Shown one piece after another: positions 2,900-43,735 of a stretch of DNA of 64,000 nucleotides. Both the position numbers and the translations under genes were made by a program. The stretch comes from an uncultured Gammaproteobacteria bacterium (GTDB taxonomy: Bacteria; Patescibacteriota; Patescibacteriia; UBA1558; GWA2-36-10): contig CAZWIT010000002.1 in the NCBI GenBank assembly GCA_964633905.1, positions 63,209-127,208 on the forward strand, given 5' to 3'. The notes beneath the pieces are model-generated. The model saw only the letters and a program-made list of their open reading frames with translations, did not search any database and was not told where the DNA came from. The first letter of the stretch is position 1. The number at the start of each line of letters is the position of its first letter.

Positions 2900-2905
2900 A
2901 AAGTT

Positions 2906-5252
<2,347 letters not shown>

Positions 5253-6475: not shown

Positions 6476-6991
6476 TTGGTAAATGGGCTGTATCACGCTT
6501 GTGGCGTGCCTTGCATTGATGGTGCTTATTTTCCTCTTTTTGAAGAGGCAGTAAAAAAGATGGAGGGAGAAATTGTTGATATGATGCCACAACCTGGTGG
6601 CGCCAAGACTTTGCGTATGTCGCGTTTGTCGGCACATGAGTTTGTGCAAAATTTTGTTGGCGTATCCGTGGCTAAACATGGTGTGAGACTCATTATTTTG
6701 GGTAATCATTTGTGTTGTGGTGCTTATGAGCGTTTTAATTTGGATCTGTCTCAAGAAGAGGATTTGCAAAAGAAACATATTGAGCGAGCAATTCGCTTTT
6801 TGAATGATCAGGTCAATTTGACCATTACTCATTATCTTTTGGATGAAGATCTTGCGCCCAGAGAAAGGGAAAATTTGATTATGGCTGCAGATAGTGGCCT
6901 AGTGATCAAGTCGCTTTTGATCAAGCCCCATGATATGTCCAAACGTATCACTAATCCTATTACTGAATGTTTTGTGGAAAGAGTTTTCTAA
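6476..6991 (+). CDS. paralog of the 5787 ORF; degenerate beta-CA-like Cys/His signature (CIDGAY ... NHLCCGAYERF); TTG start preceded by AGGAGG
   Basis: Aligns to upstream ORF (C.D...F.E...G....PG.AK ... H..CGAY); SD AGGAGG ~7 nt before start. Confidence 0.4.
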   Translation: MVNGLYHACGVPCIDGAYFPLFEEAVKKMEGEIVDMMPQPGGAKTLRMSRLSAHEFVQNFVGVSVAKHGVRLIILGNHLCCGAYERFNLDLSQEEDLQKKHIERAIRFLNDQVNLTITHYLLDEDLAPRERENLIMAADSGLVIKSLLIKPHDMSKRITNPITECFVERVF

Positions 6992-12502: not shown

Positions 12503-14932
12503 ATGTATCTTTCCTTAAATTGGGTAAAAAATTGGCTAAAAATTCCAAATAATTTAAGCCACAAAGAAATTGCCTTAGCTCTCACCATGTCCACGGTCGA
12601 GGTTGAGGAAGTTTTAGATCAGGCTAAAGATTTAGAAGGAATTGTAGTTGGCAAGATTAAGCAGATTACTAAACATCCGCAAGCTGATTTATTACAAGTA
12701 TGTCAGGTATCATTAGGCGAAACCCAAGAACAGATAGTTTGTGGTGGTTCCAATTTACGTACCGGCATGTTAGTAGCGGTAGCTACTATTGGTAGTAAGG
12801 TGCGTTGGCACGGCCAAGGCGATTGGGTAAGGCTAGCTGCTACCAAAATTAGGGGTGTGGAAAGTAGGGGTATGATTGTGGCTGCTTCAGAAGTCGGTTT
12901 AGATTTATTATTTCCAACTAATAATGAAAAAGAAATTATTGATTTATCGGATTTTAAAATAAAAGCCGGTCAAAAATTAAGCCAGGCTTTATCATTGGAT
13001 GATGTGATAATTAATATTGATAACAAGTCAATTAACCATCGTCCTGATTTGTGGGGCCAATATGGCTTAGCGCGAGAGTTGGCAGCTATTTATCGTGTTA
13101 AATTAGCTGAATATAAAATAGAACCCTTGGCTTATCAGGATAAATTAGGACTAAAAGCGGAAGTGCAAGATCCAAGTAGCTGTTATCGTTATTCGGCTTT
13201 AGCTCTTAGTAATGTCAAAGTAGCTGAATCGCCTTGGTGGCTAAAAGTAAAATTACTAGCAGTGGGCTTGCGCCCAATTAATAATATAGTTGATGCCACT
13301 AATTTTGTTATGTATGAGCTGGGTCAACCATTACATGCTTTTGATGCCAAGCAAATTGAAGATCATAAAATAGTAGTAAAGTTAGCCAAAGCAAATGATA
13401 ATTTTGTAACTCTAGACGGTGTTAAAAGAAAGCTTAGTGGTGAGACTTTGATGATTGCCGATGGTAAAAAATATTTAGCTATTGCTGGTATTATGGGCGG
13501 TCAAAACAGCGAGATAGTTAAAGACACTACGGATATTATTTTAGAATCAGCTTGCTTTAAAGCTTCTACTATTCGTCGCGCTTCTCAATTTTTAGGTTTA
13601 CGTAGTGAGAGCTCAGCTCGTTTTGAAAAATCTTTAGATCCAAATTTGACTTTACTTGCTCTCCATAAGGTAGCGCGTTTAATTTTAGCTATGAATCCAG
13701 AGGCCGAGGTTTCCAGTAACTTAATAGATATTAATAACAATCCTTTTAAAGAAATATCTTTAACAGTGCCAGAAAGCCTTTTGCTTGATAGAATGGGCAC
13801 AGTAATTCCTGCTAAAGAGATTAAAGATATTTTAACTCGTTTGCAATTTAAGGTTGATTATAAGAAAAAAGTATTTAATATTCAGGTGCCATCATTTAGG
13901 GCTACTAAAGATATTTCTGTGCCAGAAGATATTGTAGAGGAGGTGTCACGTATTTATGGTTATGATAAATTGCCTTATGTATTGCCACAATTAACTTTGC
14001 AGGAACCAATTTTTGATATAGCGCATGATGCCGCTAAAGAAATAAAAACTTGGTTAGCTTGGGGACAGGCCTATACCGAAGTAAGCACCTATCCATTTAC
14101 TAATCAATTTTGGGCCAATACTCTTGGCTTTGATTTAACCAAAAATATCAAAGTCAAAAATGCGGTTAGTCCAGATCAAGCTTATTTGAATACTTCGTTA
14201 TTACCAAATTTGTTTAATGCGGCCGAAGAAAATTATCGTTGGCATAATAATTTTAAAATTTTTGAATTAGAAAGAGTTTTTGATAAAAAAGAAAATAGTA
14301 ATTATCATACAGACCAAAGTCATAAGGGTTTCTTGCCCCAGCAACCAAAACATTTAACTGGCATAGAGTTATGTGAATGTGATGCCGAAACAATGTATCT
14401 TTCAGTAAAAGGATTATTAGAATCATTACTAAAACATTGGGGCTTAAATTGTAATTGGGAAAATCTTAATTTGCCCTATGCCAGCATTGCTGGTCGGATA
14501 ACTTTTCAGGATATTGAGTTAGGTCAGTTTGGTCTATTAAAAAAAGAATTATTTACTAGTGCTAAACAAAAAGTTAATCTTGGTTTTTGGGATTTAAATT
14601 TTTCAACTTTGATAAAATATATCAACTCTAGTAAAACATATACATTTTTACCAAAATATCCAAGTATTGATCGTGATATTGCTATTGTTATTGATAAACA
14701 AATTACTTGGCAGAGCATTGCTCAAGAAATAAATAAGGTCTCAAGCCTGATTCGTAATCTAGAACCTTTTGATGTTTATACTGGTAAAGAAGTGCCAGAA
14801 AATCAAAAGTCCTTAGCTTTCCACCTAGAATTTCGTAGTGATGACCGTACTTTACTAACAGAAGATGTGGACCAATTAATGGCCACTATTTTAGCTAATT
14901 TGGAGAAAAAATTTAAGGCAAAATTACGCTAA
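12503..14932 (+). CDS. pheT: phenylalanine--tRNA ligase beta subunit
   Basis: 809 aa, tRNA-binding and B3/4 plus B5 architecture, follows pheS. Confidence 0.95.
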   Translation: MYLSLNWVKNWLKIPNNLSHKEIALALTMSTVEVEEVLDQAKDLEGIVVGKIKQITKHPQADLLQVCQVSLGETQEQIVCGGSNLRTGMLVAVATIGSKVRWHGQGDWVRLAATKIRGVESRGMIVAASEVGLDLLFPTNNEKEIIDLSDFKIKAGQKLSQALSLDDVIINIDNKSINHRPDLWGQYGLARELAAIYRVKLAEYKIEPLAYQDKLGLKAEVQDPSSCYRYSALALSNVKVAESPWWLKVKLLAVGLRPINNIVDATNFVMYELGQPLHAFDAKQIEDHKIVVKLAKANDNFVTLDGVKRKLSGETLMIADGKKYLAIAGIMGGQNSEIVKDTTDIILESACFKASTIRRASQFLGLRSESSARFEKSLDPNLTLLALHKVARLILAMNPEAEVSSNLIDINNNPFKEISLTVPESLLLDRMGTVIPAKEIKDILTRLQFKVDYKKKVFNIQVPSFRATKDISVPEDIVEEVSRIYGYDKLPYVLPQLTLQEPIFDIAHDAAKEIKTWLAWGQAYTEVSTYPFTNQFWANTLGFDLTKNIKVKNAVSPDQAYLNTSLLPNLFNAAEENYRWHNNFKIFELERVFDKKENSNYHTDQSHKGFLPQQPKHLTGIELCECDAETMYLSVKGLLESLLKHWGLNCNWENLNLPYASIAGRITFQDIELGQFGLLKKELFTSAKQKVNLGFWDLNFSTLIKYINSSKTYTFLPKYPSIDRDIAIVIDKQITWQSIAQEINKVSSLIRNLEPFDVYTGKEVPENQKSLAFHLEFRSDDRTLLTEDVDQLMATILANLEKKFKAKLR

Positions 14933-14956
14933 TATTAGATAAAAAAAATAGATAAG

Positions 14957-14995
14957 AAACAACCTAATTTTAGGTTGTTTTTTTCTTGTTTTTAT
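14957..14995 (+). terminator. Rho-independent terminator (AAACAACCTAA ttt TAGGTTGTTT + T-run)
   Basis: Hairpin plus TTTTTTTCTTGTTTT. Confidence 0.75.
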
Positions 14996-15007
14996 GCTAA
15001 AATATAA

Positions 15008-17089
<2,082 letters not shown>

Positions 17090-26610: not shown

Positions 26611-27252
26611 ATGGGGAATTTTGATAAAAATGTTATGCCAACAAAAAACTCTCAAGAGCCAGAGCCTAATTTTAATTTAGAACAACTATCAAGCGAAGAC
26701 GATCCTGGTACTGTTAGTTTTGCTAAAAAAGTTGGTTTATTTATTTTTGAGATTGTTAAAGTTGTTTTAATCTCTTTAGCTATTATTTTACCGATTCGTT
26801 ATTTTTTAGTGCAGCCTTTCTATGTTGAAGGAGCTTCGATGGAACCAAATTTTTATGATAAAGAATATTTAATCATCGATGAAATATCTTATCGTTTTGA
26901 AAATCCACAAAGAGGAGAAGTAATTATTTTGAAAAATCCTAATGATAGACATTTTTACTTTATCAAGAGAGTGGTTGGCTTGCCTGGTGAAAAAATAGCA
27001 GTTTTGAATGGACGGGTTTTTATCAATGATAAGCAACTTGAAGAAAGTTATATTAAAAATTTTTCACACGATGACTACGGTCCAACTACTTTAGCTGATG
27101 ATGAATACTTTGTGATGGGCGATAATCGCAATAATAGCAGTGACTCTAGATATTTTGGACCATTAAATCGCAAAGATGTCATTGGTCGAGTTTGGGTCAG
27201 GGGCTGGCCTTTAAATCGATTTAATACTTTTAATCCACCAACTTACCAATAA
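26611..27252 (+). CDS. lepB: signal peptidase I
   Basis: GASMEPNF (catalytic Ser box) and GDNRNNSSDSRYFG. Confidence 0.92.
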   Translation: MGNFDKNVMPTKNSQEPEPNFNLEQLSSEDDPGTVSFAKKVGLFIFEIVKVVLISLAIILPIRYFLVQPFYVEGASMEPNFYDKEYLIIDEISYRFENPQRGEVIILKNPNDRHFYFIKRVVGLPGEKIAVLNGRVFINDKQLEESYIKNFSHDDYGPTTLADDEYFVMGDNRNNSSDSRYFGPLNRKDVIGRVWVRGWPLNRFNTFNPPTYQ

Positions 27253-29542: not shown

Positions 29543-31135
29543 ATGCTAATTTTTAAAAAAATGACTGTAGTGAGCCTATTTTTGCTAGCAGTTATTTTTT
29601 TGTATCCAAAAATGGCCTTGGCGCAAGATGCGTTTACTTCTGGTAATTTAGAAAATCTTTCAGTTTATACTACGCGCAGTATCTTTGACATGATTGTCGG
29701 CATTGTCAATGTGGCCTTAGGTTTTTTAGGTGCGATTACAGTTTTATTATTTTTATATGCTGGTTATTTATGGTTGACTTCACGCGGTGCTGCTGATCGT
29801 ATTGATCAAGCTAAAAAGATTATGATCAACGCTACCATTGGTTTAGGTATTATTTTTGTATCTTACGCTTTGGTCAATTTTATTTTCCGCTCAGCTTATG
29901 AAGGTATTTTTGGCGGCGGACCCGGTGGTAATAACAATTATAATCCTTCTTATAGCGGAGGAGTGTTAGGTGGAGTTTTGGAAAGTCATTATCCAGCTTG
30001 GAGTGCTACTAATATACCGCGCAATACTAATATCATTGTTACTTTTAGAGAGGCAATTGATTTAGAACAAATATTATTAAATGATAGTTGTGATCCGGTT
30101 AGCACAGATTGTGCAGTTGATCGTAATAATATTATGGTTTTTGTAGCTGGCAATGAAGATAGTAATTTAGCTAATAATGATCTCTTATTTAGAACAGATG
30201 CAGCTCACAAAAATTTTGTTTTTAATCCAGTGCCATTATTAGGTGATTCCAATGAGCCAGTTGACTATAGGGTGCAATTAAATAATTTACGTACAGAAAA
30301 TGGTTCGCCAGTATTTTCTGGCAGTAACTATTATTATTGGATTTTCTCGGTCGGTACTTGGGTAGACGAAGTGCCTCCTTATGTTGTTTCGGTTGTGCCG
30401 ATTGCTAGTACTGTAGCTCGCAACACTATTGTGCAGATTAATTTTTCGGAAAGTGTTAATCCTCTATATATACCAGCGGTATCTGACGCGGCTGCTAATA
30501 TCAGATTAAGTGATCCCAATCTAATTGATGGTGTTTTTCAATTAAGTAATCAGTATCGAACAGTTGAATTTTTAACTAATTCACAATGTGGTCAAAATTC
30601 TTGCGGCTTTAATATATTTTGTTTACCAGCTTCAGCGACTATTGATGGTATTATTATTGATGAAGTTAGGGATATGGTTGGTAATCAATTAGATGGTAAT
30701 CATGACGGTGATCATGATGTTAATGATAATTTTGATAATTGGCAATTTAACACTAACAACGATATTGATACTACTGGTCCAATTATGACTTATCGTGATC
30801 GCAGTGATGATTGGAATATTTATGCTCCGATTAGGATTAGCTTTGATAGTTCTTTATCGGCTGCTTCAGTAAATTATGACAATGTTAAATTAGATTGGAA
30901 TATTAATTATTGGTTAGGTTTGGCTTCTTATGAACCTACCTATAATAATAGTATTATGATCTACCATAATCCTATGGCAGCAAATACTGATTATAGTATT
31001 TCTTGCTTGTCTGGTATTAGGGATTTACAACAAAATTGTTATCAACCTTGTAATTGTCCCTTGGGTTCCCCAGGTTGTGGTGCAAATCCACCTATGGGCA
31101 CGCCTTGTCCGCCAGGTACTTGTTCATGGAATTAG
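29543..31135 (+). CDS. secreted/membrane-anchored protein: signal peptide plus 2-TM VirB2/TrbC-pilin-like anchor module, Gly-rich linker, Ig-like (SbsA-type) domains, Cys-rich C-terminus
   Basis: N-terminal ~100 aa paralogous to the N-terminus of the giant ORF at 31178; AXA cleavage site (ALA-QDA). Confidence 0.8.
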   Translation: MLIFKKMTVVSLFLLAVIFLYPKMALAQDAFTSGNLENLSVYTTRSIFDMIVGIVNVALGFLGAITVLLFLYAGYLWLTSRGAADRIDQAKKIMINATIGLGIIFVSYALVNFIFRSAYEGIFGGGPGGNNNYNPSYSGGVLGGVLESHYPAWSATNIPRNTNIIVTFREAIDLEQILLNDSCDPVSTDCAVDRNNIMVFVAGNEDSNLANNDLLFRTDAAHKNFVFNPVPLLGDSNEPVDYRVQLNNLRTENGSPVFSGSNYYYWIFSVGTWVDEVPPYVVSVVPIASTVARNTIVQINFSESVNPLYIPAVSDAAANIRLSDPNLIDGVFQLSNQYRTVEFLTNSQCGQNSCGFNIFCLPASATIDGIIIDEVRDMVGNQLDGNHDGDHDVNDNFDNWQFNTNNDIDTTGPIMTYRDRSDDWNIYAPIRISFDSSLSAASVNYDNVKLDWNINYWLGLASYEPTYNNSIMIYHNPMAANTDYSISCLSGIRDLQQNCYQPCNCPLGSPGCGANPPMGTPCPPGTCSWN

Positions 31136-31177
31136 TATTTAAAACTTATTTATAAAAGGATAAATAAAAATATAAAA

Positions 31178-34100
31178 ATGAAAAAAATATCCATCCTAGT
31201 AATTTTTTGGCTGCTATTGGGACTGATGTTTGCTCTGCCAGCTTGGGCGCAGGGTGCTTTTGGTACTAATACTTTGACTAATCTGGCTGTTTATAGTACG
31301 CGTAGCATTACTGATACTATAGTTGGTATAGTCAATATTATTTTAGGCTTTTTGGGTGTGATTGCAGTTTTACTTTTTTTGTATTCTGGTTGGCTGTGGC
31401 TATCTTCTAGAGGGGATGCACAAAAGATTCAAAAATCTAAGTTGATTATGGCTAGTACCGTAATTGGCTTATTAATTATTTTTGCTTCTTATGCTATTAC
31501 CAATTTTATTATTGCTAGAATAGCCGAAGAAACCGGCACTATTGAAACTACTCCGCCAGGCTATGTACCACCTGGACCAGGACCTGTTACTTGTCCTTTG
31601 CCCGCCAATGATGGTGATATAGATGTATGTCAAGTTTATCCCGGTGCGGCTGCTCCAGGTAATTATTTTACGATTACAGGTTGGAACTTTGGTAATTATG
31701 TAGCGGGCAATAGCCGAGCAGTATTACGTGATAATTTGGGTAATGAAACAGCTTTAGATTTAGTTAGTTGCGATGGCAATCCAATTTGGAATTTAATTTA
31801 TACTACGCCAGATGGAGATAATAGTTTTTATGAAATTAGAGCAATAGTGCCAGATATTACGGCCGCTGTTTATGATGTTAGAGTTTATCGAAATGCCACT
31901 GTCTTTGATCAAGAGACCAATAATTCATTTACAGTTTCTCCGCCTGGAGCAGTTGGTTTGAATATTGCTTGTTTGCGTCCAAGCTTTGGTGCAGCTCGTC
32001 CAACGCCTGAGAGTGTGATAGCTGAGGGTATTAATTTTGGTACTAGTGCAGGTACAATTAGTATGAAAGGCTGGGTCGGGAGTAGCGAGGCCGATATTAC
32101 TGTTCCTAGTGGCACTTGGGATGATACTTTGATTACTTTTCAAATTCCAGATAATGCTTTAGCGAGTGATGTTAAAATTACTCATAATGCAGATATCAAT
32201 AATTGGGATACTCGTTATTTCATGGTTACTTGCGGTGGTGATGATGGTAATTGTTCTTCTGGTTGCTGTAGTAATTATAATGAATGCCGTCCTAATACAA
32301 ATGAGTTTTGTCCAGCTGGCGCTAATTTCAGTAGTGCGCCACGCATAGATGCTATTAGTCCTAATAATGGTGCAGCTGGAAATTTAGTAACTATTTTAGG
32401 GCAAAACTTTGGTACTGTTGCCGGTACGGTTTGGTTTAATGGTGCTAGCGGTCCGATTCAAGGAGTTGTACCATCAATTCTCTACCCAGGTATTTGTCCA
32501 GCCGGTAATTATTGGTATGATAATTATATAATTATTGGTGTGCCAGTAGGCACTATAGACGGCTCGGTCTATATTATGACTGGAGCAGCTATACCTGAGC
32601 AGAGTAATAATGCATCTTTTGATGAAAATGGAATTTCGCGCCCAGGTTTGTGTCAATTAAATCCTATTGGTGGTAGCTTCCAAAATGAAACTAGAGTTAA
32701 TACAACTGGTATTAATTTTGCCAGCACTGATAAAATTTTATTTTCAGTTGATCCAGATATTACTGGTAATGATTATATTTATACTTCTCCGAATGAAGCC
32801 TCGGCTGTAGTACCAAATTTACAAAACGGTCAAGTTGGTGTTCAAATAAAAAATAACGCTGACCAATATAGTAATCCTTTGCCTTTTCAGGTAAGTGATA
32901 GTTTTTTTGGTCAACCACGCATTGTTACCACTTCTCCTAATGGTATTAAGAGCGGTGTTTATATTACTATTTTTGGTACAAATTTTGGAAATTTAGCTGG
33001 CCAAGTGTTATTTAATGATGTAAATAATGCCACTAATCCAGATCTAGTTGGCATTGTTCCGAGTAATCCAATGTGCCAAAATGCTTATTGGCAGAACAAT
33101 CAAATAGTAGTAGAAACTCCTAATTTGCCAGATATTAGCAATGGCAGTCCTTATGAAATAGTTGTTAAGCGAGCTGATGCAGTAGTAAGCGAAGCTTATG
33201 ATATTAATTATAATACTAGTTTAGAAGACGGAGTCTTTTTGTGTGCCGTAGTACCAGATAATGGCCCTAATAATTTTTCGCCAGTTGATTTTTATGGTTC
33301 GGGCTTTAGTGATAATAGTGTTAGAATTCAATTTAATGGAGCAGCTAATACTGTTAATCCGACAGGCTTTAATGATACTCAAGCTTGGGATACGACAGTG
33401 CCTGGTGATGCCTTGAGTGGTCAAGTAATTTTGCAATCGCAAGCTGATAATGGTACTTGGCTTAATAGTAATGCTTTAAATTTTAATATTGCTGGCTGTT
33501 CTCAAAATTCCGATTGTCAGGGTTCAGAGCAATGTTGTCCTGGTAATTTTGGTAACTATTGTTCTCTAAGTTGTGATCAAATTTTAAGCTGTACTTATAC
33601 CTCTACTTTGCATACCCAAAATATACCTTTTAGTATTAATTATAATTATAATTGTGATACTGATTGGCAGTCACCAACTCCTTGGCCAGATGGATTGTTA
33701 AGTTATTCCTCACAAGATAATTATGTAGACTCTAATATTTCTTTTACCTTTACTCGTAATATTGTTGATGCTGATTTAGAGCCAGCTGCTCATAAAATTA
33801 GGTTGTATGAATGTGATAACAGGAATACTAGTTGTGATGTAGAAATAAATATTGCTACCAATATTATTGGTCAAAATAGTAATCAAGAAGGCGTGCTTAT
33901 TAATCCGCTTAATAATTTAGCAGAAAATACTTGGTATAAGGTGGTTTTAGTAGGTGACTTTAGAGCTGAAGGTGGCAATGAATACTGGAATACTAGTTAT
34001 GATCCTGATTTACAAGTTGTTGGTGGTTGGAATTTTAGAACTAAATCAACTGACTTGGCTTGTGAAATTAGTAGTATTCAAGTAACACCGCAGTCAGCAG

Positions 34101-37100
34101 CTGCTAATTTCTATTTAGGTAATTCTCGAGATTTTTATTCAGCACCAACTGCGAATAATTGTAATTTATGCGGTGGTAATTATAATTGGACTTGGCAATT
34201 GACTAATCCACCTAATCCAGATGCCGCTAATGTGACCGATCCATCAAATATTGGCACTAATATTGGTCATACTCGTTTGACCTCTGATTTACCAATAAAT
34301 TATGCAACTGAATTTTTATCTCCTAATTATGTAAATTTGCAATGTAATGTTAATCAGGCAATTGCGCCTAGTTTTTCACAGCCAGTAGTTTTGGCTCCAA
34401 TCTTATTGGTAGAAAATTATGGCCCACTTTGTTCAGCTTCTTGTGACAATGGCACAGTTTGGATAGATTTTAATACACAAATTGCTGCGACCTATTTAAA
34501 TAATACTTATTTTTCAATTCAAGATTGTAATAATGACGCTAGTTGTGCTAGCCCATTGGCTACAAATTTAGTAAATAATATAGCCTTACCACAAGATAGT
34601 AATTTTAGAATAACTTTGCCTCACGCTGCTTTTACTCATAATCATTATTATCGTGTTCAAGCTTTGGATACAATTAGAAATATTCACGGTTATCAATTAG
34701 ATGATACTAAGACTTGGGTTTTTGGTGTAGGCGATGCATCTTGTGAAGTGGCTAGCGTTAATTTAAATCCTAGCAATGCTACTGTGGCAATTAGTAATCA
34801 AATTGCCTATGGTGCTCAGGCTTATTCTGATCCTAATGCTTGTTATATCCATGGTCAGCCAATTGATTGTTTGGCTGCTAATAATTGTACTTGGTTATGG
34901 GCTTCTTCTAATAATACTATTGCTACTATTGAAAATAATAATAGTAGTGTGAGTAATGCTACTGGTGTGGCTGTGGGCACTACTAATATTTCAGCCAATG
35001 CTCGCCAGGCCGGCGTTGATCATATTGATAGTGGTATTTTGACAGTAGTGGAATCAATTACAACTCCAGTTGATCCGCACTTACCACCACGGGTAGAAAA
35101 TATTAGGCCACTTGATGGTGAGACTAACATTTGTCCTAATGCCGCTATTACTATGGATTTTACTGAGTTAATGGATCCAGCTAGTGTGATGGCTCATGTA
35201 AAATTGTATGCTCAGCCTGATAATTATGATGTTAATGGTGACGGTGTTGCTGATTTACAAGACGTTGCTTTAATTTCAGGGAATATTAATTTATGGGATT
35301 TGGTAGATGTTAATTATGGCGTTACGCATTTTGACAGTAATAGTGATAATATTCCAGATAAGACAACGGTAATTTTATATCCTACAAGTTTATTACGTAT
35401 TGTTAATAAAATTAATCATGTAGTGGTACAAGGCAATGTTACTAGTATTTATAATATTGCCTTAGATAGTGGACAATATAATTTTGAGGGCCAGATTCCT
35501 GATATGCCTGGTAATGATAGCTATTCTTGGCATTTTACAACGGGAGCTGACTTATGTCGTATTAGTTATATACAGACTATCCCAACTAGCGATTGGTTTT
35601 TGTGTGCCGGGGATAATTGTGGCATTACTGACGTTGAACCAGCCACGCCCGGTCATCAACATAGCTATACGGCTATTGCTAGAGATGTGCGTGGCATCGC
35701 TTTAGCAGGCTCTATTAGTTATGATTGGTCATTAAATAATGATGGTATTAATTTATTATTAAATAATGATGGTTCGCCAGCTGCTGGGGCTACACCTAAT
35801 GTTCATTTTAAAGTTGCTAATGAAAATGGACGGGAAACTTTAATTGTTAATGCTCAAGGTAGCGATGTTGGTTCGGCTAGCGCTAATATTGGTATTGATG
35901 TATTTTTATGTGAAGTACCTTGGCCTGGTCCTGGTTTGAATTTATTTCCTTGGCAGGATGATGCTTATAATTTTTCTACTTACTATTGTCCTGATGTTGA
36001 TCAAAATGACGGTATTGCTTCTTTGCCAATTTTAAATAATAATCCGATTGAAAATCCTAATCATCCAGCTAGTGTATTACGCGAGTATATTTTTTCAGTA
36101 CCAGCTCCAGTCAGCATGGATTCAGGTAATAATTTTGGTAGTTTATCTACTAGTAAATATAATCAAACAGATAGTTGGTGGTCGCATTTATTTAAAAAAG
36201 TATCTAAGCCTTGGCAGGCATTAGTAGCCAGAGGTCAGGGTATTGGCACAGACATTATTGCCTTGAGAATCATGTCCAATCTTAATCATTTATCGGTAGA
36301 GGATTGGTATGAATTAAATGCTCCTAACCCAGACATTGGGGGCACTTCTTTGGAGGTTGATGGTTATCCAGCTTTGCAAGTAGGAAATACAGTTTATATT
36401 TCAGCCTTTAATTTAGATGATGCGGGCAATGTTCGTTATACTAATATTTATATTTTAGCTTATAATATTGGCGCTAGACCAACAACAGTAGAGATTTTTA
36501 GTCAGCTACTTGATAATTTTAGATTAAATACTAATGTTGATCAGCAAAATAATATTTGCGTCGGCGGTGTAGATGCAGGCAATGTTTGTAGTAGTGATTT
36601 TGATTGTGCTGACCATAATTGTCAGTCTCAAGGCTTAAAATTACGTCGTGATTTAGTGCGTTTGGGAGACATGTTAAATATTAATAGTAAATTAATTGAG
36701 TATGGTGAAACTCACAAGGCCTGTAGTAATAATAGTTTAACAGCTTGTGTTAATAATTCTCAGTGTCCAAATGGTGGTACTTGTATTAATTATTATCCAC
36801 TGCTTAATGCTGGTACTTTTGTGCGCGGCCAATCTAATAGTTCTTGGCCTTCTTGGCAACAGACTTTGGCTACTGGTTTAAGTGGCTCTTTGCCATTGGA
36901 TCCTATTAATTTATTTAATGCTTGCGGTGATCCAGGTTTTGATCCAAATACTTGTTGGAACGAAGAAGCTTTAGAATTTTCTTGTCCAATTGGCTCTTTG
37001 ATTTATCATTATCAAAGAAGTGAAACTGGCGATGGTTATGATTTGTCGGCTAATTTTGAAAGTATTAGTAATTTTGCTACCTTATTAGATCCTATGGATA

Positions 37101-40100
37101 GTAATATTAATACTGAACTTTTATATTGTAACGCCGCTAGTGCTAACTTAATCAACCCTCGTTGTGGTAATGGTAGAATAGATTGGGTTTGTTCAAATAG
37201 AAATTATAATAATCAAACTGATTGTGAGGCTAATAGCGGAACGTGGTATGAAGAGGAATGTGACGGTGGTTATCAAGATAATCAATGTAATCCAATTTTA
37301 AGTGCTACTTATGGAGTACATACCTGGTGGAACGAACAAAGAACAGGTTGTTATCCAGCTGGTAGTATTGTAGGAGGTAATTCCGTAGAATGTACTTGGT
37401 ATGAGCCTGATGTAGCAACCATGTTTGCTCTATGCGGAGGCTATTGTGGTAATAATGCTTTAGAAAGTAATTATGAAGATTGTGAAAATATAAATGGCAA
37501 TACTAATTTTGGCGGAGTGAATTATAGTTGTGCCAATGGCATAGCGCCTACTTGTAGTCCAACTAGCTGTCAAGCTGTTTGTGGTCCTATGCAAACTCCA
37601 GCTGCAGCTTGCGGTGATGGCATTTGGACTGAATTAGTAGAAGAATGCGATGCTAGTGCTCCTAATAATGCAAATGGTTTATCGGAGTTAGATTGTACAG
37701 AAAATGGTAATGTTAGTTGTAATAACAATTGTGAAGCAGTATGTGATACGGGCGTAGCTTATGACGGTCAGTGTGGCGACGGTAATCTTAATAGTGATAT
37801 CAATCCAGTAAGTGGCGATCCTTATGAAGAATGTGATTATGGTGCTTATGCGGTGCCAAGTCCAGCTCAATCATCGCTTACTAACCCTTATACTTGTTTA
37901 CAAAATTGTACTTTTGGTTCAGATTATTGTAATGATACAATTAAACAAGGTGGTTTTGACGAGATTTGTGATACCACTTTAGCTATTAGTCCGACACCAC
38001 CAAATTCTTCTCGTTATAGTCAATATCAGTGCCGTACAGTAAATGACGCAGCTGATCCTTTGTGGACAAAATGTACACCTACAGCCGGCGGTTATTGTGG
38101 TGATGGCACTATTCAAAATGGACAAAATGGAACTTTCGCAGCTGGTGAAATTTGTGATTCTGCTTATCATCCAACTCCAGCAGAAAGCGGCCCAGAAAAT
38201 ACTTACTCTTGTAGTTATACTTGTATGACTAGGACCGGCGGTTATTGTGGCGACACTATTATACAGGATGGTAATAATGGCACTACTGATTATGGTGAAA
38301 CTTGTGATTATGCTGCTTATGCTCCGCCACTACCAGTAGATGCTGATGATATTAATCATCAATATGTTTGTAGTGATGTTTGTTTAGCTGATAGTGGTGG
38401 CTGGTGTGGTGATTCTATTTTGCAGCCTCAATTTGGCGAAGATTGTGATTATGGTAACCCATCAACTCACACTATTCCAGATCCTTGGAATAGTAATTCC
38501 AGTAATCCCTACACTTGTCCTAGTTGTTCCGTTGGTTCATATTGTGGTGATGGTGTTATTGATGTTGCCTATGGCGAGCAATGTGACGCTGGCATGACAC
38601 CACCAGCACGTAAAGTTGAATTAGCGTTTGTTTATGATATGTCGCGTAGCATGCAAACTGCAGCCGCAGCCTTGTGTGGAGTTTTGGATACTTTCTTAGA
38701 TAATTTTGATCCATCAACTACTTTTAGAGTCAGTATTTTCGTTTTAGGTGATGATGCACCAGGTTCTACTGGTAGTCCGCGCACTTTGACACCTGGTACA
38801 AGCGATGATTTAAGAGCACTGACAGATAATGGCACTTGTAGCACAGATGCTCCAGATACAGTTAGTTGTGAGCATAGAAATGTTTATAATAGCTTAGTGC
38901 GTGGTTGCACTGCGCTTTGGGATAGACATGTAGCAGAAATTGCCACTTATAGTGATAGTACTAATCTTAATAAATTTAGATTTTTAAGTTTTTATGATAA
39001 CAATGCTAGTGATCCAGCCTATAATCACATAACTGGCGGCGTAACAAATTTTACCAGTGCTGATGATCATACTAGCTTAAATGGTTGCAATGATGCAGAA
39101 CCGGGTGGTAGATTAGAGAATTGGGGTTATGCTACTGAAAAAATTATTAACAATTATCAGTGGTTAAGTGGTTATCAACGCATAGTTATACCAGTAAGTG
39201 ATGAGTATGCTTGGTGTGGTGGTGATGTAGCTATACCAACAGCAGCAGCTAATGAGAACAATTGCAATACACCAAATACTTGTTCAGGTACTCCGGCTAC
39301 TGGACAACTTGCTAGTGATGATATTATTTCTAGAATTATAAGTTCGGCTACTAATCCGGCTACAAAAGCTTTTGTTAGCCCAGTAATTTTGGCAGGTGCC
39401 GATAATCAAGCTATAGCTTTGCAAGCAGCCAATGCCACAGGTGGTTATATGAGTACGGCTGCTGATGCTAGTTCTTGGAATACGAATATTAATAATATGG
39501 TTGGTGGCGTTTTCTGTGATAGTCATCCAGCTGATGGTGTTATGGATTGTATGTTGCCTGGTGGAGCTCCACCGGCAGCAGGCTTACCAACTTTGTCATT
39601 GCCATATTATTACATATCAAGTGATAGTAATAGTAGCAATAGGAGCGTAACTATAACTCTTGGTGGTACAGCCACTTGGTGGGATGCAGTTTCAAATGAT
39701 CCAACTTGGATTACCAATGTTAGTAAATCTGGCAACACTCTTTCTTTTAGCATAGCGGCTAATACTGGTTCTGTGACCAGAACTGGCTCAATTAAACTTA
39801 CGGCCGGAGCAGCAACTGGGTCACCAATAACAGTCAATCTTAGCATTGATCAATTAGCGCCAGTGCCAGTGCCAACTTTGTCATTACCATATTATACTTT
39901 AGATAGGGACAGCTCGGCAGTCACTATTAGTGTGCCAGTGACTATTGGCGGTTCAGCTACTTGGTGGCAAGCAATTTCTAATAATACGGCTTGGATTAGT
40001 GGTATAAGTCAAGTAGGTAATACACTTTCTTTTAATATAGCTGCCAATACCGGACCGGATAGGACTGGTACAATTTCAGTTAGAGCTGGCGCGCCCACTG

Positions 40101-41848
40101 GTGTGCCAATAGCAGTGACACTGACTATTAATCAAGCAGCGCCAGTAGTACCTCCTGATACAATGCCGCCAACTCCAATTGGAAATACTTTAGTAGCTAC
40201 TCCAGCCGATGGTCAAATTCGTTTAGATTGGGCAGTAGCCACTGATGATAGAGGCGCAGTTATTTATGAGGTAGAAAGATTAGGGCCTACTACTGGAAAT
40301 TATCTAGCTTATTCTAATACCTTTAATCAAAGCGGTTTAAGTAATGGCGTAAGTTATTCTTATCGAGTCAGAGCACGAGATTTAGCTGGTAATATAACGG
40401 CTTGGACAAATACAGCTTCAGCTACTCCTGTTCCAGCCGCTATTCCGCCAATTGCTCCAGCTAATTTAGAAGCTTTTGCACAAGCAGGGGGTATTTATTT
40501 GACTTGGGGCACGGCAACCGTAGGTGATCCAATATCATATTTTAGACTGGAGCGGTCCACTAATTTTAGTTTTTCAACCGTAGATGTGGTTGCTGACATT
40601 AATTTTGCTAGCTTTACTGGTAGCTATACTGATAGTTTTCCTTTAGCTAATCCGACGGTTACTTATTATTATCGAGTAAAGTCAGTAAATAGTGGTAGTG
40701 GTCTAGAGTCTACTTATGTTGGTCCAGTAAATGCTACTATTCCTGATACAACTGCGCCTAGTGTTCCTACAAATTTAACAAGTACTTATTTGAGTGATAC
40801 ACAGTATCGTTTTAGTTGGACAGTTTCAACAGATAATATTGCTATAGATCATTATGAAGTAGAATATCAGGCTGACGCTTTTGTATCTGATGGCACAGGA
40901 ACAAATATTGGTAATCCAACTACCAACTCAATAGATTTTACATTGGATCCTACGGTTGCAACTTATTCTTTTCGAGTACGAGCCTTTGATGCTGGTGGTA
41001 ATCAATCTGCTTGGTCATCAGCGTTAGTAGCTTTTGCTGTTGATGTCTTGCCACCGACTAATCCTACTAATCTTACAGCTTCTGTTTCATTTGGTAATGT
41101 TAATTTAAATTGGACAGCGGTTAGTGATAATATTGGTGTTAGCGGCTATGATTTATTAAGAGCTACTACTAGTGGTGGGCCTTATACTTTAATTGTTTGT
41201 CCCTCGATGTCTTGTAATGTCACTGGATCAACTGCTAGAAGCAACACTTCTGTAGCGCCGGGGACTTATTATTATGTAGTAAAAGCCTTTGATGCTGCTG
41301 GTAATAGATCGGATATTTCTAATCAAATAGCAGTAACAATTTTGCCACCAGCACCACCTAGTGTACCTACTAATTTTACTGGCATGCCAATAGGCAGATT
41401 AGTAAGTTTAAATTGGACAGCTTCTATTGATGATGTATCAGTGACTAATTATGAGGTTCAATATAAACCTAATTTAACTGGGACCTGGACTCTTGTTGGT
41501 AGTCCAACTACTAATGCTCTGAGCTATTCAGTACCAGCTCTAGTTACCCAACCATATTTTCGTGTTAGAGCTAAAGATAATGATAATAATTATTCAAATT
41601 ATTCAACTGAATTGACCGTTACTATTGATGGTACTGGTTGTACTGAAACATTTTGTAATCAATGGGATGCTATTAATAGTGCTAATAGAACTGCATGTGC
41701 AAATCAGTGTGTAAATAATAGCGGTTGTTGTCAAGCTTGCGTAGATCCATATAATTCTTATGTTGGTTGTCGTTTGAATCCTGATGCGGTTACTAATTCC
41801 TGTTCTAGTAGTCAGGTGTCCATGCCATTAGGTGTGCGTTGTGATTAA
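31178..41848 (+). CDS. giant (3556 aa) mosaic cell-surface protein: VirB2/TrbC-like anchor, IPT/TIG-like Ig repeats, CGDG...ECD Cys-rich repeat array, vWA (MIDAS), 2 BACON-like, 5 FN3, Cys-rich C-terminus; putative adhesin
   Basis: Single uninterrupted ORF; domain signatures read directly from translation (see findings). Confidence 0.9.
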   Translation: MKKISILVIFWLLLGLMFALPAWAQGAFGTNTLTNLAVYSTRSITDTIVGIVNIILGFLGVIAVLLFLYSGWLWLSSRGDAQKIQKSKLIMASTVIGLLIIFASYAITNFIIARIAEETGTIETTPPGYVPPGPGPVTCPLPANDGDIDVCQVYPGAAAPGNYFTITGWNFGNYVAGNSRAVLRDNLGNETALDLVSCDGNPIWNLIYTTPDGDNSFYEIRAIVPDITAAVYDVRVYRNATVFDQETNNSFTVSPPGAVGLNIACLRPSFGAARPTPESVIAEGINFGTSAGTISMKGWVGSSEADITVPSGTWDDTLITFQIPDNALASDVKITHNADINNWDTRYFMVTCGGDDGNCSSGCCSNYNECRPNTNEFCPAGANFSSAPRIDAISPNNGAAGNLVTILGQNFGTVAGTVWFNGASGPIQGVVPSILYPGICPAGNYWYDNYIIIGVPVGTIDGSVYIMTGAAIPEQSNNASFDENGISRPGLCQLNPIGGSFQNETRVNTTGINFASTDKILFSVDPDITGNDYIYTSPNEASAVVPNLQNGQVGVQIKNNADQYSNPLPFQVSDSFFGQPRIVTTSPNGIKSGVYITIFGTNFGNLAGQVLFNDVNNATNPDLVGIVPSNPMCQNAYWQNNQIVVETPNLPDISNGSPYEIVVKRADAVVSEAYDINYNTSLEDGVFLCAVVPDNGPNNFSPVDFYGSGFSDNSVRIQFNGAANTVNPTGFNDTQAWDTTVPGDALSGQVILQSQADNGTWLNSNALNFNIAGCSQNSDCQGSEQCCPGNFGNYCSLSCDQILSCTYTSTLHTQNIPFSINYNYNCDTDWQSPTPWPDGLLSYSSQDNYVDSNISFTFTRNIVDADLEPAAHKIRLYECDNRNTSCDVEINIATNIIGQNSNQEGVLINPLNNLAENTWYKVVLVGDFRAEGGNEYWNTSYDPDLQVVGGWNFRTKSTDLACEISSIQVTPQSAAANFYLGNSRDFYSAPTANNCNLCGGNYNWTWQLTNPPNPDAANVTDPSNIGTNIGHTRLTSDLPINYATEFLSPNYVNLQCNVNQAIAPSFSQPVVLAPILLVENYGPLCSASCDNGTVWIDFNTQIAATYLNNTYFSIQDCNNDASCASPLATNLVNNIALPQDSNFRITLPHAAFTHNHYYRVQALDTIRNIHGYQLDDTKTWVFGVGDASCEVASVNLNPSNATVAISNQIAYGAQAYSDPNACYIHGQPIDCLAANNCTWLWASSNNTIATIENNNSSVSNATGVAVGTTNISANARQAGVDHIDSGILTVVESITTPVDPHLPPRVENIRPLDGETNICPNAAITMDFTELMDPASVMAHVKLYAQPDNYDVNGDGVADLQDVALISGNINLWDLVDVNYGVTHFDSNSDNIPDKTTVILYPTSLLRIVNKINHVVVQGNVTSIYNIALDSGQYNFEGQIPDMPGNDSYSWHFTTGADLCRISYIQTIPTSDWFLCAGDNCGITDVEPATPGHQHSYTAIARDVRGIALAGSISYDWSLNNDGINLLLNNDGSPAAGATPNVHFKVANENGRETLIVNAQGSDVGSASANIGIDVFLCEVPWPGPGLNLFPWQDDAYNFSTYYCPDVDQNDGIASLPILNNNPIENPNHPASVLREYIFSVPAPVSMDSGNNFGSLSTSKYNQTDSWWSHLFKKVSKPWQALVARGQGIGTDIIALRIMSNLNHLSVEDWYELNAPNPDIGGTSLEVDGYPALQVGNTVYISAFNLDDAGNVRYTNIYILAYNIGARPTTVEIFSQLLDNFRLNTNVDQQNNICVGGVDAGNVCSSDFDCADHNCQSQGLKLRRDLVRLGDMLNINSKLIEYGETHKACSNNSLTACVNNSQCPNGGTCINYYPLLNAGTFVRGQSNSSWPSWQQTLATGLSGSLPLDPINLFNACGDPGFDPNTCWNEEALEFSCPIGSLIYHYQRSETGDGYDLSANFESISNFATLLDPMDSNINTELLYCNAASANLINPRCGNGRIDWVCSNRNYNNQTDCEANSGTWYEEECDGGYQDNQCNPILSATYGVHTWWNEQRTGCYPAGSIVGGNSVECTWYEPDVATMFALCGGYCGNNALESNYEDCENINGNTNFGGVNYSCANGIAPTCSPTSCQAVCGPMQTPAAACGDGIWTELVEECDASAPNNANGLSELDCTENGNVSCNNNCEAVCDTGVAYDGQCGDGNLNSDINPVSGDPYEECDYGAYAVPSPAQSSLTNPYTCLQNCTFGSDYCNDTIKQGGFDEICDTTLAISPTPPNSSRYSQYQCRTVNDAADPLWTKCTPTAGGYCGDGTIQNGQNGTFAAGEICDSAYHPTPAESGPENTYSCSYTCMTRTGGYCGDTIIQDGNNGTTDYGETCDYAAYAPPLPVDADDINHQYVCSDVCLADSGGWCGDSILQPQFGEDCDYGNPSTHTIPDPWNSNSSNPYTCPSCSVGSYCGDGVIDVAYGEQCDAGMTPPARKVELAFVYDMSRSMQTAAAALCGVLDTFLDNFDPSTTFRVSIFVLGDDAPGSTGSPRTLTPGTSDDLRALTDNGTCSTDAPDTVSCEHRNVYNSLVRGCTALWDRHVAEIATYSDSTNLNKFRFLSFYDNNASDPAYNHITGGVTNFTSADDHTSLNGCNDAEPGGRLENWGYATEKIINNYQWLSGYQRIVIPVSDEYAWCGGDVAIPTAAANENNCNTPNTCSGTPATGQLASDDIISRIISSATNPATKAFVSPVILAGADNQAIALQAANATGGYMSTAADASSWNTNINNMVGGVFCDSHPADGVMDCMLPGGAPPAAGLPTLSLPYYYISSDSNSSNRSVTITLGGTATWWDAVSNDPTWITNVSKSGNTLSFSIAANTGSVTRTGSIKLTAGAATGSPITVNLSIDQLAPVPVPTLSLPYYTLDRDSSAVTISVPVTIGGSATWWQAISNNTAWISGISQVGNTLSFNIAANTGPDRTGTISVRAGAPTGVPIAVTLTINQAAPVVPPDTMPPTPIGNTLVATPADGQIRLDWAVATDDRGAVIYEVERLGPTTGNYLAYSNTFNQSGLSNGVSYSYRVRARDLAGNITAWTNTASATPVPAAIPPIAPANLEAFAQAGGIYLTWGTATVGDPISYFRLERSTNFSFSTVDVVADINFASFTGSYTDSFPLANPTVTYYYRVKSVNSGSGLESTYVGPVNATIPDTTAPSVPTNLTSTYLSDTQYRFSWTVSTDNIAIDHYEVEYQADAFVSDGTGTNIGNPTTNSIDFTLDPTVATYSFRVRAFDAGGNQSAWSSALVAFAVDVLPPTNPTNLTASVSFGNVNLNWTAVSDNIGVSGYDLLRATTSGGPYTLIVCPSMSCNVTGSTARSNTSVAPGTYYYVVKAFDAAGNRSDISNQIAVTILPPAPPSVPTNFTGMPIGRLVSLNWTASIDDVSVTNYEVQYKPNLTGTWTLVGSPTTNALSYSVPALVTQPYFRVRAKDNDNNYSNYSTELTVTIDGTGCTETFCNQWDAINSANRTACANQCVNNSGCCQACVDPYNSYVGCRLNPDAVTNSCSSSQVSMPLGVRCD
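37430..38610 (+). repeat. array of at least 10 cysteine-rich repeats (CGDG/CGNG ... G-E-x-CD), Myxococcus-type cysteine-rich repeat-like, inside the giant ORF
   Basis: Repeated YCGDGTIQ...GEICD, YCGDTIIQ...GETCDY, WCGDSILQ...GEDCDYG, YCGDGVID...GEQCDAG and similar. Confidence 0.65.
38615..39250 (+). other. von Willebrand factor A domain with MIDAS motif D-M-S-R-S-M inside the giant ORF
   Basis: VELAFVYDMSRSMQTAAAAL ... FRVSIFVLGDD. Confidence 0.6.
39583..40155 (+). repeat. two tandem ~95-aa BACON-like repeats (coding), sharing a near-identical 24-nt start
   Basis: LPTLSLPYYYISSDS...ATWWDAVSND..NTLSFSIAANTG..RTGSIKL...ITVNLSIDQ and PTLSLPYYTLDRDS...ATWWQAISNN..NTLSFNIAANTG..RTGTISV...IAVTLTINQ. 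Confidence 0.6.
40150..41630 (+). repeat. five tandem fibronectin type III domains (coding)
   Basis: Recurrent P..PTNLT...L.W..S.D..GV..Y.V.R...G.....YYYRV.A.D.AGN.S motifs. Confidence 0.7.
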
Positions 41849-41878: not shown

Positions 41879-42724
41879 ATGTTTGAAGATTTAAAACAAG
41901 GTAATGGCCCCACTGGGCCGAGTGTAAATTCAATGCCAAATGCACCAAAGGCGCCGGTAGCTGATATGTTTGCGGAAGTTGATCCAAATAATAGTCCAGA
42001 CGGGCTGATTAGGCCTAGCGCGGTTCAATCAGGAAAAATTAAGCCAGTTGGCAATAATAATTGGTCAGCACCAGATGGGTCAGCAAGCAATGTTCAAGTA
42101 GACCAAATGTTAGTTGGTGATAGCCGTGGGCCAGTTAATCGTAAAATTATTGTAATGGTATCAGTAATTATCTTATTGATAGCTTTTGGAGCAGCTGCTT
42201 ATTTTATCTTTAAAGATAGAATTAATGGTGTTATTAGTAAAAATACTAATGTGACCCAAAACACTAATACTAGCAATGCTAACCTTAACAGAAATCAAAA
42301 CACTAATATTGGTAATGCCAATGTAAATACCAATGTCAATTTGAATCAAAACACTAATGTCCAAGTAAATCTAGACGATGATTCGGATGGATTAGATAAT
42401 GAAACAGAAATCAAGCTAGGCACTAATATTAGACTAGTTGATAGTGATAATGATGGTTTATCAGATTGGGATGAAGTTAAATTATATAAAACCGATCCCT
42501 TAAAGAGTGATTCAGATAATGATAAATTAATTGATGGTCAAGAACAATTAGTTTATTTTACTGATCCTTTAGTTGCTGATACTGATAAAGATGGTTATAG
42601 CGATGGCGAAGAAGTGCTCAATGGCTATAATCCCAAAGGCACTGGTAAACTAGAAAGTACCAGCACAATACCTGGCTTAATTCAAAATTTTAATACTAAT
42701 GTTAATAGTAACGTAAGTCAATAA
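41879..42724 (+). CDS. single-pass membrane protein with N/T-rich low-complexity linker and bacterial thrombospondin-type-3-like Ca-binding repeats (DxDxDG..D..E....TDP)
   Basis: DSDNDGLSDWDEVKLYKTDPLKS / DSDNDKLIDGQEQLVYFTDPLVA / DTDKDGYSDGEEVLNGYNP repeats; one TM. Confidence 0.75.
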   Translation: MFEDLKQGNGPTGPSVNSMPNAPKAPVADMFAEVDPNNSPDGLIRPSAVQSGKIKPVGNNNWSAPDGSASNVQVDQMLVGDSRGPVNRKIIVMVSVIILLIAFGAAAYFIFKDRINGVISKNTNVTQNTNTSNANLNRNQNTNIGNANVNTNVNLNQNTNVQVNLDDDSDGLDNETEIKLGTNIRLVDSDNDGLSDWDEVKLYKTDPLKSDSDNDKLIDGQEQLVYFTDPLVADTDKDGYSDGEEVLNGYNPKGTGKLESTSTIPGLIQNFNTNVNSNVSQ

Positions 42725-42727
42725 ATT

Positions 42728-43735
42728 ATGCTGTTTGACAAAAAGAAAACTGTAAATGATAAAGAGAAAAATATAAAAGAACAAGCCGAAAATGTAGTTA
42801 CTACACCAGCTATTAAAGATGAAGATGTTCATGTTATGCCAGGTAAGTTTGTAGCTTTGGCTCCTGATGTTAAAAAGAGCGGAACTAAAACCATGACTAA
42901 AGTTTTACTTTCTTTACTGTTTTTTTTGATACTGGTGGTAGGAGGAGCAGCTTGGTATATTTTGAGTAAAAAAAATCCAGTTATCGTTGCTAATCAAAAT
43001 AATAATAAAAATATTAATGCCGCTGTTAATAATCAGAACAATACCAATACTAGTAATGTAAATATGAATGTTAATGATATTATTAACAGTATAATTAATA
43101 ATACTACTACCACTAATCAAAATACTAACATTAATAGTAATGTTAATAATGTAGTAGTAGTGCCATCTGAAAATAATCAGGACAGTGACCAAGATGCTTT
43201 GACTTTTCTAGAAGAAACTTTATATAACACTAATGAAGCATTGGCTGATAGTGATAAAGATGGCTATAAAGATGGGGCAGAGTTGTTAAGTTTATACGAT
43301 CCCAGTATTGCTGGTGGGAGTTTAAGTAATTCCAACTTAATTAAAGTTTACAAAAATGATAATTTTAGTTATCAGCTTTTTGTTCCTAAAAAATGGTTAG
43401 TACAAAGTATTGATGACGGTCGTCGGCAAATCAACTTTGTGCCAGATTCGGCTACTGGCGAAACCATTGTTATTAAAGTGACAGATAACACTCAACATTC
43501 AGAACTAGCCGATTGGCAGAAGATTTTATTGCCAACTAAAACTGTAGAAAATTATCGTTTAGCTAATTATTCGGCGGTAAAAACTAGTGATGGTAAGCAA
43601 GTTTTATTTGTCAACTATGATTATGTTTTTATGATTAGCTATGATCAAGCAAGCGTTGTTAATGCTAATTTTAGTACAACTTTTGGCATGATGTTAAAGA
43701 GTTTTGCTTTAAATATTAAGGAAGTTTCCAATTAA
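42728..43735 (+). CDS. paralog of the 41879 ORF: single-pass membrane protein, N-rich low-complexity tract, TSP3-like repeats, ~150-aa C-terminal domain
   Basis: DSDKDGYKDGAELLSLYDP motif shared with upstream ORF; same architecture. Confidence 0.75.
   Translation: MLFDKKKTVNDKEKNIKEQAENVVTTPAIKDEDVHVMPGKFVALAPDVKKSGTKTMTKVLLSLLFFLILVVGGAAWYILSKKNPVIVANQNNNKNINAAVNNQNNTNTSNVNMNVNDIINSIINNTTTTNQNTNINSNVNNVVVVPSENNQDSDQDALTFLEETLYNTNEALADSDKDGYKDGAELLSLYDPSIAGGSLSNSNLIKVYKNDNFSYQLFVPKKWLVQSIDDGRRQINFVPDSATGETIVIKVTDNTQHSELADWQKILLPTKTVENYRLANYSAVKTSDGKQVLFVNYDYVFMISYDQASVVNANFSTTFGMMLKSFALNIKEVSN

Follow-up and report, generated by a model that had tools for sequence, protein, structure and literature searches.

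Two adjacent genes in a 64,000-nucleotide stretch of DNA (positions 63,209 to 127,208 of contig CAZWIT010000002.1, assembly GCA_964633905.1, titled as an uncultured Gammaproteobacteria bacterium and assigned by GTDB to the Patescibacteriota; hereafter, the window) raise the question of why two proteins of very different size should begin with nearly the same membrane-associated segment, and of what this segment is. The genes, open reading frame (ORF) A (29543..31135; 530 aa) and ORF B (31178..41848; 3556 aa), both lie on the + strand and are separated by 42 nt. An earlier note, made from the letters of the window, had described the shared segment as a paralogous signal-peptide plus two-helix anchor module of VirB2-like topology, grafted onto unrelated cargo domains in a module-shuffled family of surface proteins.

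The two peptides quoted in that note proved identical to the translations of the ORFs starting at 29543 and 31178, and the near-colinearity of the two N-termini was borne out by BLASTP, which aligned residues 4-120 of ORF A with residues 1-117 of ORF B without gaps (62/117 identical and 82/117 positive; E=3e-34). This N-terminal module, delimited in the earlier note as 29621..31543, an interval opening with module A and closing with module B, was the single significant segment, all other segments having E>=4.9. Six-frame searches of the whole window, performed by phmmer with both modules, with a 65-sequence family profile and with a profile built without the window sequences, yielded only two copies of the module, those of ORF A and ORF B. 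The regions downstream, said to be unrelated, are indeed so by pairwise sequence similarity, but not in kind, as both are chains of immunoglobulin (Ig)-like beta-sandwich domains and both contain a Pfam Big_5 domain. As judged from these alignments, the module is a true paralogous domain whose similarity goes beyond shared hydrophobicity.

Profile comparisons identified the module as a pilin. The Pfam family T4SS_pilin (PF18895; T4SS, type IV secretion system) matched both full-length proteins over positions 2-71 of 71, and matched the isolated module of ORF A over the same positions at 30.1 bits (E=5e-7; gathering cut-off 26.6); the match of the latter to TrbC/VirB2 (PF04956) was weak, spanning positions 8-98 of 98 at 19 bits (E=0.0017; cut-off 27.9). 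PF18895 was found in 65/65 aligned close relatives of the module, and PF04956 in 38/65. A profile built from 63 stand-alone Patescibacteria pilins of 105-140 aa, with the window sequences left out, was matched by each of the two modules along nearly its whole length (positions 1-125 of 127; ~99 bits, E~3e-30; domain and sequence scores for the ORF B module, 98.9 and 99.8 bits, respectively), and it is because of this end-to-end match that the module is taken to be a whole pilin pre-protein rather than a hydrophobic anchor. By module sequence, the closest relatives of ORF A and ORF B are short stand-alone pilins: a database search with both modules returned 224 matches, the best 120 of which were all proteins of 105-192 aa, all but two of these 120 carrying PF18895 and several being named "pilin [Patescibacteria group bacterium]" by NCBI. 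The module keeps all of the residues that are invariant in the pilin family (L59, G63, G74 and G82), as well as the near-invariant W77, T79, A90 and G100. Both proteins display a signal peptide (with predicted cleavage), two hydrophobic helices and a short basic loop; in size, at 530 and 3556 aa, they fall well outside the range of stand-alone pilins (about 100-140 aa). Thus, at the level of sequence profiles, the shared module is an entire T4SS_pilin (VirB2/TrbC-like) pre-protein, which agrees with the VirB2-like reading of the earlier note; its membership in PF18895, and a paralogy that exceeds hydrophobicity, speak against the generic signal anchor that would have undone this reading. The T4SS_pilin family is itself large (79,806 clusters at 50% identity; E<=1e-3). 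The top-scoring members of the superfamily (P0241-P0390) each have 2-17 pilin domains in tandem on one polypeptide (e.g., P0247, of 1775 aa, with 17 matched stretches); these could be real poly-pilin proteins or else pilin arrays that gene callers have read through, for instance where the genetic code differs.

The anatomy of ORF A was delineated from its translation, its Pfam matches (PF18895 and Big_5) and an AlphaFold2 (AF2) model built from 66 homologues (mean predicted local distance difference test score [pLDDT], 85). All features of the two genes are on the + strand. The signal peptide (29543..29623; residues 1-27) consists of a hydrophobic N-terminal segment, modeled as a helix over residues 2-25, and a predicted type I cleavage site, ALA/QD (the slash denotes the cleavage position), the Ala/Gln junction of which is kept in 59/66 family members. 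The mature pilin module that follows (29624..29902; residues 28-120) comprises a short, poorly modeled tail and a helical hairpin (helices 47-78 and 84-122) closed by the basic loop SRGAADRIDQAKK; a module-only AF2 model reproduced this hairpin with pLDDT >90. Next come a Gly/Asn-rich flexible linker (29903..29977; residues 121-145) of low conservation, disordered in the model (pLDDT <50 at 124-140), and three Ig-like beta-sandwich domains (29978..31027; residues ~146-272, 273-405 and 406-495), confidently modeled as sandwiches at ~146-270, 281-404 and 415-500 with pLDDT >90 over most of the region. The protein ends in a Cys-rich tail (31028..31132; residues 496-530) of low model confidence, in which N498, C499 and a Cys pattern are conserved in the alignment. 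Foldseek searches with the ORF A model retrieved tandem Ig-like proteins exclusively (the N-terminal domains of LdtMt2, the S-layer protein SbsC and cadherins; E~1e-7), and no enzyme was among the matches.

ORF B starts in the same fashion, with a signal peptide (31178..31249; residues 1-24; predicted cleavage AWA/QG) followed by the mature pilin module (31250..31528; residues 25-117), the inter-helix loop of which, SRGDAQKIQKSK, is also basic. The remainder is a long, predicted extracellular region, strongly acidic as the protein is as a whole (118 cysteines in all), in which Pfam recognized, in order, three TIG/IPT stretches (the best of them, and the last, at 32915..33190, residues 580-671), two Big_5 Ig-like domains (35084..35242, residues 1303-1355, and a weaker one at residues ~849-955), two BACON stretches (39677..39838; residues 2834-2887) and a fibronectin type III (fn3) domain (40763..41026; residues 3196-3283). 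Between the Big_5 and BACON domains lies a stretch of ~1300 residues with no Pfam match at E<=0.01, which includes Cys-rich repeats of the type "CGDG…E.CD" (37145..38587; residues ~1990-2470), read from the sequence and its Cys positions; a PDB sequence search with residues 1501-2800 likewise gave no match. ORF A and ORF B have three hydrophobic segments each, all of them N-terminal, and hydropathy revealed none past residue ~117 in either protein and no C-terminal anchor. Their respective C-termini, …PCPPGTCSWN and …SMPLGVRCD, are not LPXTG-type tails.

Is the pair a recent product of local domain grafting? At least 177 full-length homologues of ORF A were found, of which the 120 listed measure 468-714 aa and nearly all carry PF18895 and Big_5 (PF13205) in precomputed Pfam annotations. 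They are named "hypothetical" or "Ig-like domain-containing protein" and originate from Parcubacteria, Nomurabacteria, Komeilibacteria, Buchananbacteria, Uhrbacteria and others, some on contigs that, at ~1 Mb, probably represent entire genomes. The A-B pair occurs in identical housekeeping synteny (lepB-hisS-rpsU-yqeY-A-B-…-ybeY) in a Falkowbacteria metagenome-assembled genome (MAG; locus L002), in the Patescibacteria-type contigs L003 and L006, and in L009, L011, L012 and L013, in addition to a near-identical contig (L001, 96% identical to the window); loci L001-L007 were obtained by scanning one genome per species. In L009 and L011-L013, the gene order is LepB-HisRS-S21-YqeY-A-B, preceded in L009, L012 and L013, the loci that reach further upstream, by (NusG-L11-)L1-M17-Pth-Der-LytR. 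Orthologues of ORF B that are colinear with it and measure 2520-3318+ aa were found in L002, L003, L004, L006, L009, L012 and L013, with variable domain content across L009 and L011-L013 (including a VWA domain in L012), and further pilin-headed giants in L004, L005 and L007. Since colinearity between loci extends to the C-terminal parts, among the A proteins as well as among the B proteins, the two genes represent two old orthologous families, and a conserved pair, rather than a recent local graft. The module-shuffled family proposed in the earlier note is thus not supported: the window contains only two copies of the module and no dispersed family with many cargos, and the pair is old, orthologous and syntenic across Patescibacteria. 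In its place, sequence comparisons argue for an ancient conserved pair of modular pilins. As a separate observation, the Patescibacteria-type locus of L001, L004, L005 and L006 resides in MAGs titled "uncultured Gammaproteobacteria bacterium", which are probably mislabeled or contaminated bins.

What might such a pair do? The explanation that we favor, and to which we give somewhat better than even chances, is that ORF A and ORF B encode modular VirB2-like pilins that are exported by Sec, are held in the membrane by their hairpins, project Ig-like chains from the surface and form a single fibre or adhesin complex. Upon Sec-dependent export, signal peptidase I would cut both signal peptides at the Ala/Gln junction, and the hairpins would be kept in the cytoplasmic membrane with their basic loop inside and both of their ends outside, in which topology the C-terminal extension would be extracellular and the Ig chains would project from the cell surface. 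The A and B hairpins may then touch each other, or the same pilin or T4SS partners, such that A (conserved and short) and B (giant and variable) would together build one surface fibre or adhesin complex for contact with host cells or a substrate, perhaps joined by two single-pass TSP3-repeat proteins encoded downstream.

Several observations weigh against this explanation. The PF18895 scores of full-length ORF A and ORF B (25.9 and 23.0 bits) fall just under the Pfam gathering cut-off of 26.6; the solved VirB2 structure from Agrobacterium (8cue/8fai) topped a PDB profile search and aligned from its mature N-terminus, but at a non-significant E=1.4, and fold matches to a helical hairpin lack specificity. 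No T4SS gene (VirB4, VirB6, VirB3/PrgI or TrsD) was found in the 64-kb window when every ORF >=100 aa outside larger genes was scanned against Pfam, and the closest stand-alone pilin (P0003) belongs to an array of four pilin genes, likewise more than 10 kb from any VirB4, so that it is family homology that connects the pair to a secretion machine. For contrast with the fused pair, one Patescibacteria MAG has some eight short T4SS_pilin genes in an array of the classical kind (L008, 9803..12763 and 14636..15094). The putative adhesive role, finally, is read from the types of domains, and the single-copy, core-genome housekeeping context fits a structural role in the envelope as well as it fits host binding.

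This context also fits a different explanation, in which an ancestral pilin was recruited once as a Sec-exported hairpin anchor, and A and B are core envelope scaffolds (S-layer-like or wall-spanning) with no functional tie to a T4SS or to one another, the similarity of their modules being due to occasional gene conversion. The housekeeping neighborhood conserved from NusG to YbeY, the presence nearby of a LytR-CpsA-Psr gene and, in the window, of ftsA/ftsZ, the retrieval of the S-layer protein SbsC by Foldseek and the lack of T4SS genes from the window all fit this explanation, as does the arrangement of the modules as adjacent tandem paralogues, a classic substrate for conversion. The pattern of conservation, on the other hand, does not: the hairpin module is the best-conserved region of the ORF A family (mean pairwise identity of 50% vs 31-49% for the Ig domains), and it retains pilin-family motifs beyond what hydrophobicity would demand. 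As far as can be told from the alignments, this motif-level conservation argues against a passive anchor, and we consider a plain anchor unlikely.

How the two modules vary between lineages bears both on the postulated conversion and on the contact between A and B that our favored explanation entails. Within one lineage, the A and B modules are 50-66% identical and closer to each other than to their orthologues from other lineages. In neighbor-joining (NJ) trees, same-lineage modules were recovered as sisters in 993/1000 (L003), 945/1000 (L006) and 810/1000 (L012) bootstraps, and monophyly of all A modules in 0/1000. The window and L011, whose A proteins are 67% identical, together formed a four-member clade (997/1000), within which the two A modules (844) and the two B modules (1000) paired; over short distances, then, the modules follow orthology. 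Two processes could underlie such lineage-wise grouping, co-evolution of subunits that touch each other or a partial gene conversion of old date, and they are inseparable here because synonymous sites are saturated; old conversion, rather than physical contact, could thus account for the similarity of the modules, which is a further point against the proposed complex. Recent conversion between modules A and B, for its part, was considered and found no support: 29/54 identical residues of the window pair are encoded by identical codons vs 28-29 expected from codon usage, and the longest identical nucleotide run is 10 nt. This lack of an excess of shared codons counts against the anchor-and-conversion scenario, and so do a few loop residues, "AKK(I/M)" in A and "K(L/M)L" in B, that distinguish the two modules in the window, L002, L009 and L011-L013, albeit not in L003 and L006, since wholesale conversion would erase them.

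If the hairpins are more than anchors, A and B might be genuine pilus subunits, of the minor or tip kind: a T4SS would pull the hairpins out of the membrane and insert them, at low density or at the tip, into a filament of short VirB2-like pilins, on the outside of which the Ig-like domains would form adhesin arms. That the module is a complete pilin with its invariant and near-invariant residues in place, that the hairpin is more conserved than the cargo, beyond the need of a passive anchor, and that the extension is C-terminal and set off by a flexible linker are all in line with this possibility. In the solved F and T pili, both termini of the pilin lie on the outside of the filament. Essential pilin arrays, moreover, are an uncommon trait for a monoderm system, and Patescibacteria T4SSs possess them (PMC10633639, PMC12857230). 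Set against these points are the lack of T4SS genes from the window, the location of the pair among housekeeping genes and away from pilin arrays, and a literature that, as far as searched, shows no pilus in such organisms, a review speaking of pilus-making in Patescibacteria as a "potential" only (PMC12857230). An appendage of 400-3400 residues would also be expected to block close helical packing save at very low stoichiometry. The lack of T4SS genes nearby, together with the length of the extensions, speaks against polymerisation as a routine event, and we are doubtful that A and B are pilus subunits in this sense. A broader proposal, which we put forward as speculative, is that the VirB2-like pilins of Patescibacteria, more than a mere conduit, provide a general assembly platform, in which a T4SS or a pilin lattice would take up A and B and display the short arm and the giant adhesin on a pilus or a pilin raft. 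If this were true, the essential "pilus-bearing monoderm T4SS" would primarily be a host-attachment organelle, A and B would be the first VirB2-family pilins described with grafted functional modules, and the way in which the two hairpins co-vary by lineage would identify a direct interface between the subunits.

The surroundings of the pair are those of a housekeeping chromosome of low GC content (~35%). ATP synthase, PheRS, GyrB, NusG-L11-L1, Pth, Der, LytR, LepB, HisRS, S21 and YqeY are encoded before the pair, and two membrane proteins, YbeY, FtsA/FtsZ, ComEC, EF-G and EF-Tu after ORF B. The signal peptidase I gene, lepB (26611..27252, + strand; Peptidase_S26, E=1e-46), lies three to four genes upstream of ORF A, a position kept in L002, L003, L006, L009, L011, L012 and L013; its product would be the likely remover of both signal peptides, although the adjacency may be mere core-genome synteny. 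Immediately downstream of ORF B, two + strand genes (41879..42724, 281 aa, and 42728..43735, 335 aa) encode predicted single-pass membrane proteins that have their N-terminus in the cytoplasm, one transmembrane helix, a low-complexity spacer rich in Asn and calcium-binding repeats of the TSP3 type (DxDxDG). Homologues of the first are found behind the giant gene in L004, L007, L012 and L013 (with YbeY also in view in L013), and a homologue of the second in L007. Synteny makes the two proteins possible partners of ORF A and ORF B, and the conserved unit may in fact comprise four genes, as a surface cassette flanked by yqeY and ybeY. Promoter and terminator counts over 26.4-44.6 kb were no higher than in shuffled sequences and thus provide no evidence for or against an operon. 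Elsewhere in the window, directly behind the ATP synthase operon, two neighboring ORFs (5787..6236 and 6476..6991) are likewise paralogous, both matching Pfam Pro_CA_2 (putative carbonic anhydrase).

The systems closest to the pair are the VirB2-like pilins of Patescibacteria themselves (PF18895/PF04956), which are widespread and encoded in tandem arrays of 2-11 genes with identities of up to 54% (Quiñonero-Coronel et al. 2025, PMC12102498), and one array of which, located inside a T4SS cluster, is essential in the Saccharibacterium Southlakia epibionticum (Wang et al. 2023, PMC10633639). In Paceibacterales co-cultures, genes with T4SS-pilin domains also rank among those that are highly expressed yet have no assigned function, the adjacent PMX.50_00607 and PMX.50_00608 among them (PMC10936435), and reviews describe the role of the T4SS and of its essential VirB2-like pilins in Patescibacteria as "completely unknown" (PMC11665869, PMC12857230). 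ORF A and ORF B share with these pilins the PF18895 family, the phylum, the signal peptide with a two-helix hairpin and the occurrence as adjacent paralogous copies, 53% identical in A/B vs up to 54% in the arrays (PMC12102498). They differ in that the described pilins are small (105-140 aa for the 63 relatives), whereas the A and B copies carry an extracellular extension of 400 or 3400 residues, and in that the arrays consist of 2-11 short genes, often near virB4, whereas A-B is a single-copy orthologous locus among housekeeping genes. The table of the T4SS survey gives PF18895 matches without lengths (PMC12102498), and fusions of the A/B type may be among the proteins tallied there as "VirB2", with no remark made on them; more generally, such fusions will enter any genome survey in which PF18895 matches are scored as "VirB2 pilins" or "pilin arrays" and protein length is not checked.

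With the conjugative pilins VirB2, TrbC and TraA of Gram-negative T4SSs (PF04956; PDB 8cue/8fai), which polymerise with lipid into an extracellular pilus and are in some cases cyclised, the pair has in common a long signal peptide, predicted to be cut before Gln, a hydrophobic hairpin and a basic loop. It departs from them in scoring under the PF04956 cut-off, in having no virB neighbors, in belonging to a monoderm-type organism and in its large C-terminal extensions. In type IV pilins, by comparison, the signal peptide is of class III and is removed by prepilin peptidase (G/F…E5), a single N-terminal helix follows, and modular representatives such as Streptococcus sanguinis PilB and PilC combine an anchoring or polymerising pilin module with an adhesive module at the C-terminal end. 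The design of A and B, a pilin with a C-terminal functional module, follows the same idea. The two groups are, however, not homologous: neither ORF A (M…ALA/QDAFTSG) nor ORF B (M…AWA/QGAFGTN) shows a G/FxxxE motif or class III leader, and both have instead a type I Ala/Gln junction, a two-helix hairpin and far larger extensions.

The extensions themselves recall the giant Ig-repeat adhesins that are LPXTG-anchored or type I-secreted, with which they share very long acidic chains of TIG, Big, fn3 and BACON-type domains with Cys and calcium motifs; unlike these adhesins, A and B would be anchored N-terminally, by the pilin hairpin, and have no C-terminal LPXTG, hydrophobic tail or late hydrophobic segment. 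The pilin family itself is already known, but no description of pilin-headed Ig-repeat proteins, or of the conserved, Ig-fused A-B pair, was found in the literature searched. Should the hairpin turn out to be only an anchor, the benefit would be a tidy improvement in the annotation of proteins now labeled "hypothetical" or "Ig-like domain-containing protein". As a pair of complete pilins with Ig-like arms, one of them a variable giant of 2500-3500 residues, A and B offer a testable link from the pilin family to cell-surface and host-contact structures in Paceibacteria/"Parcubacteria".

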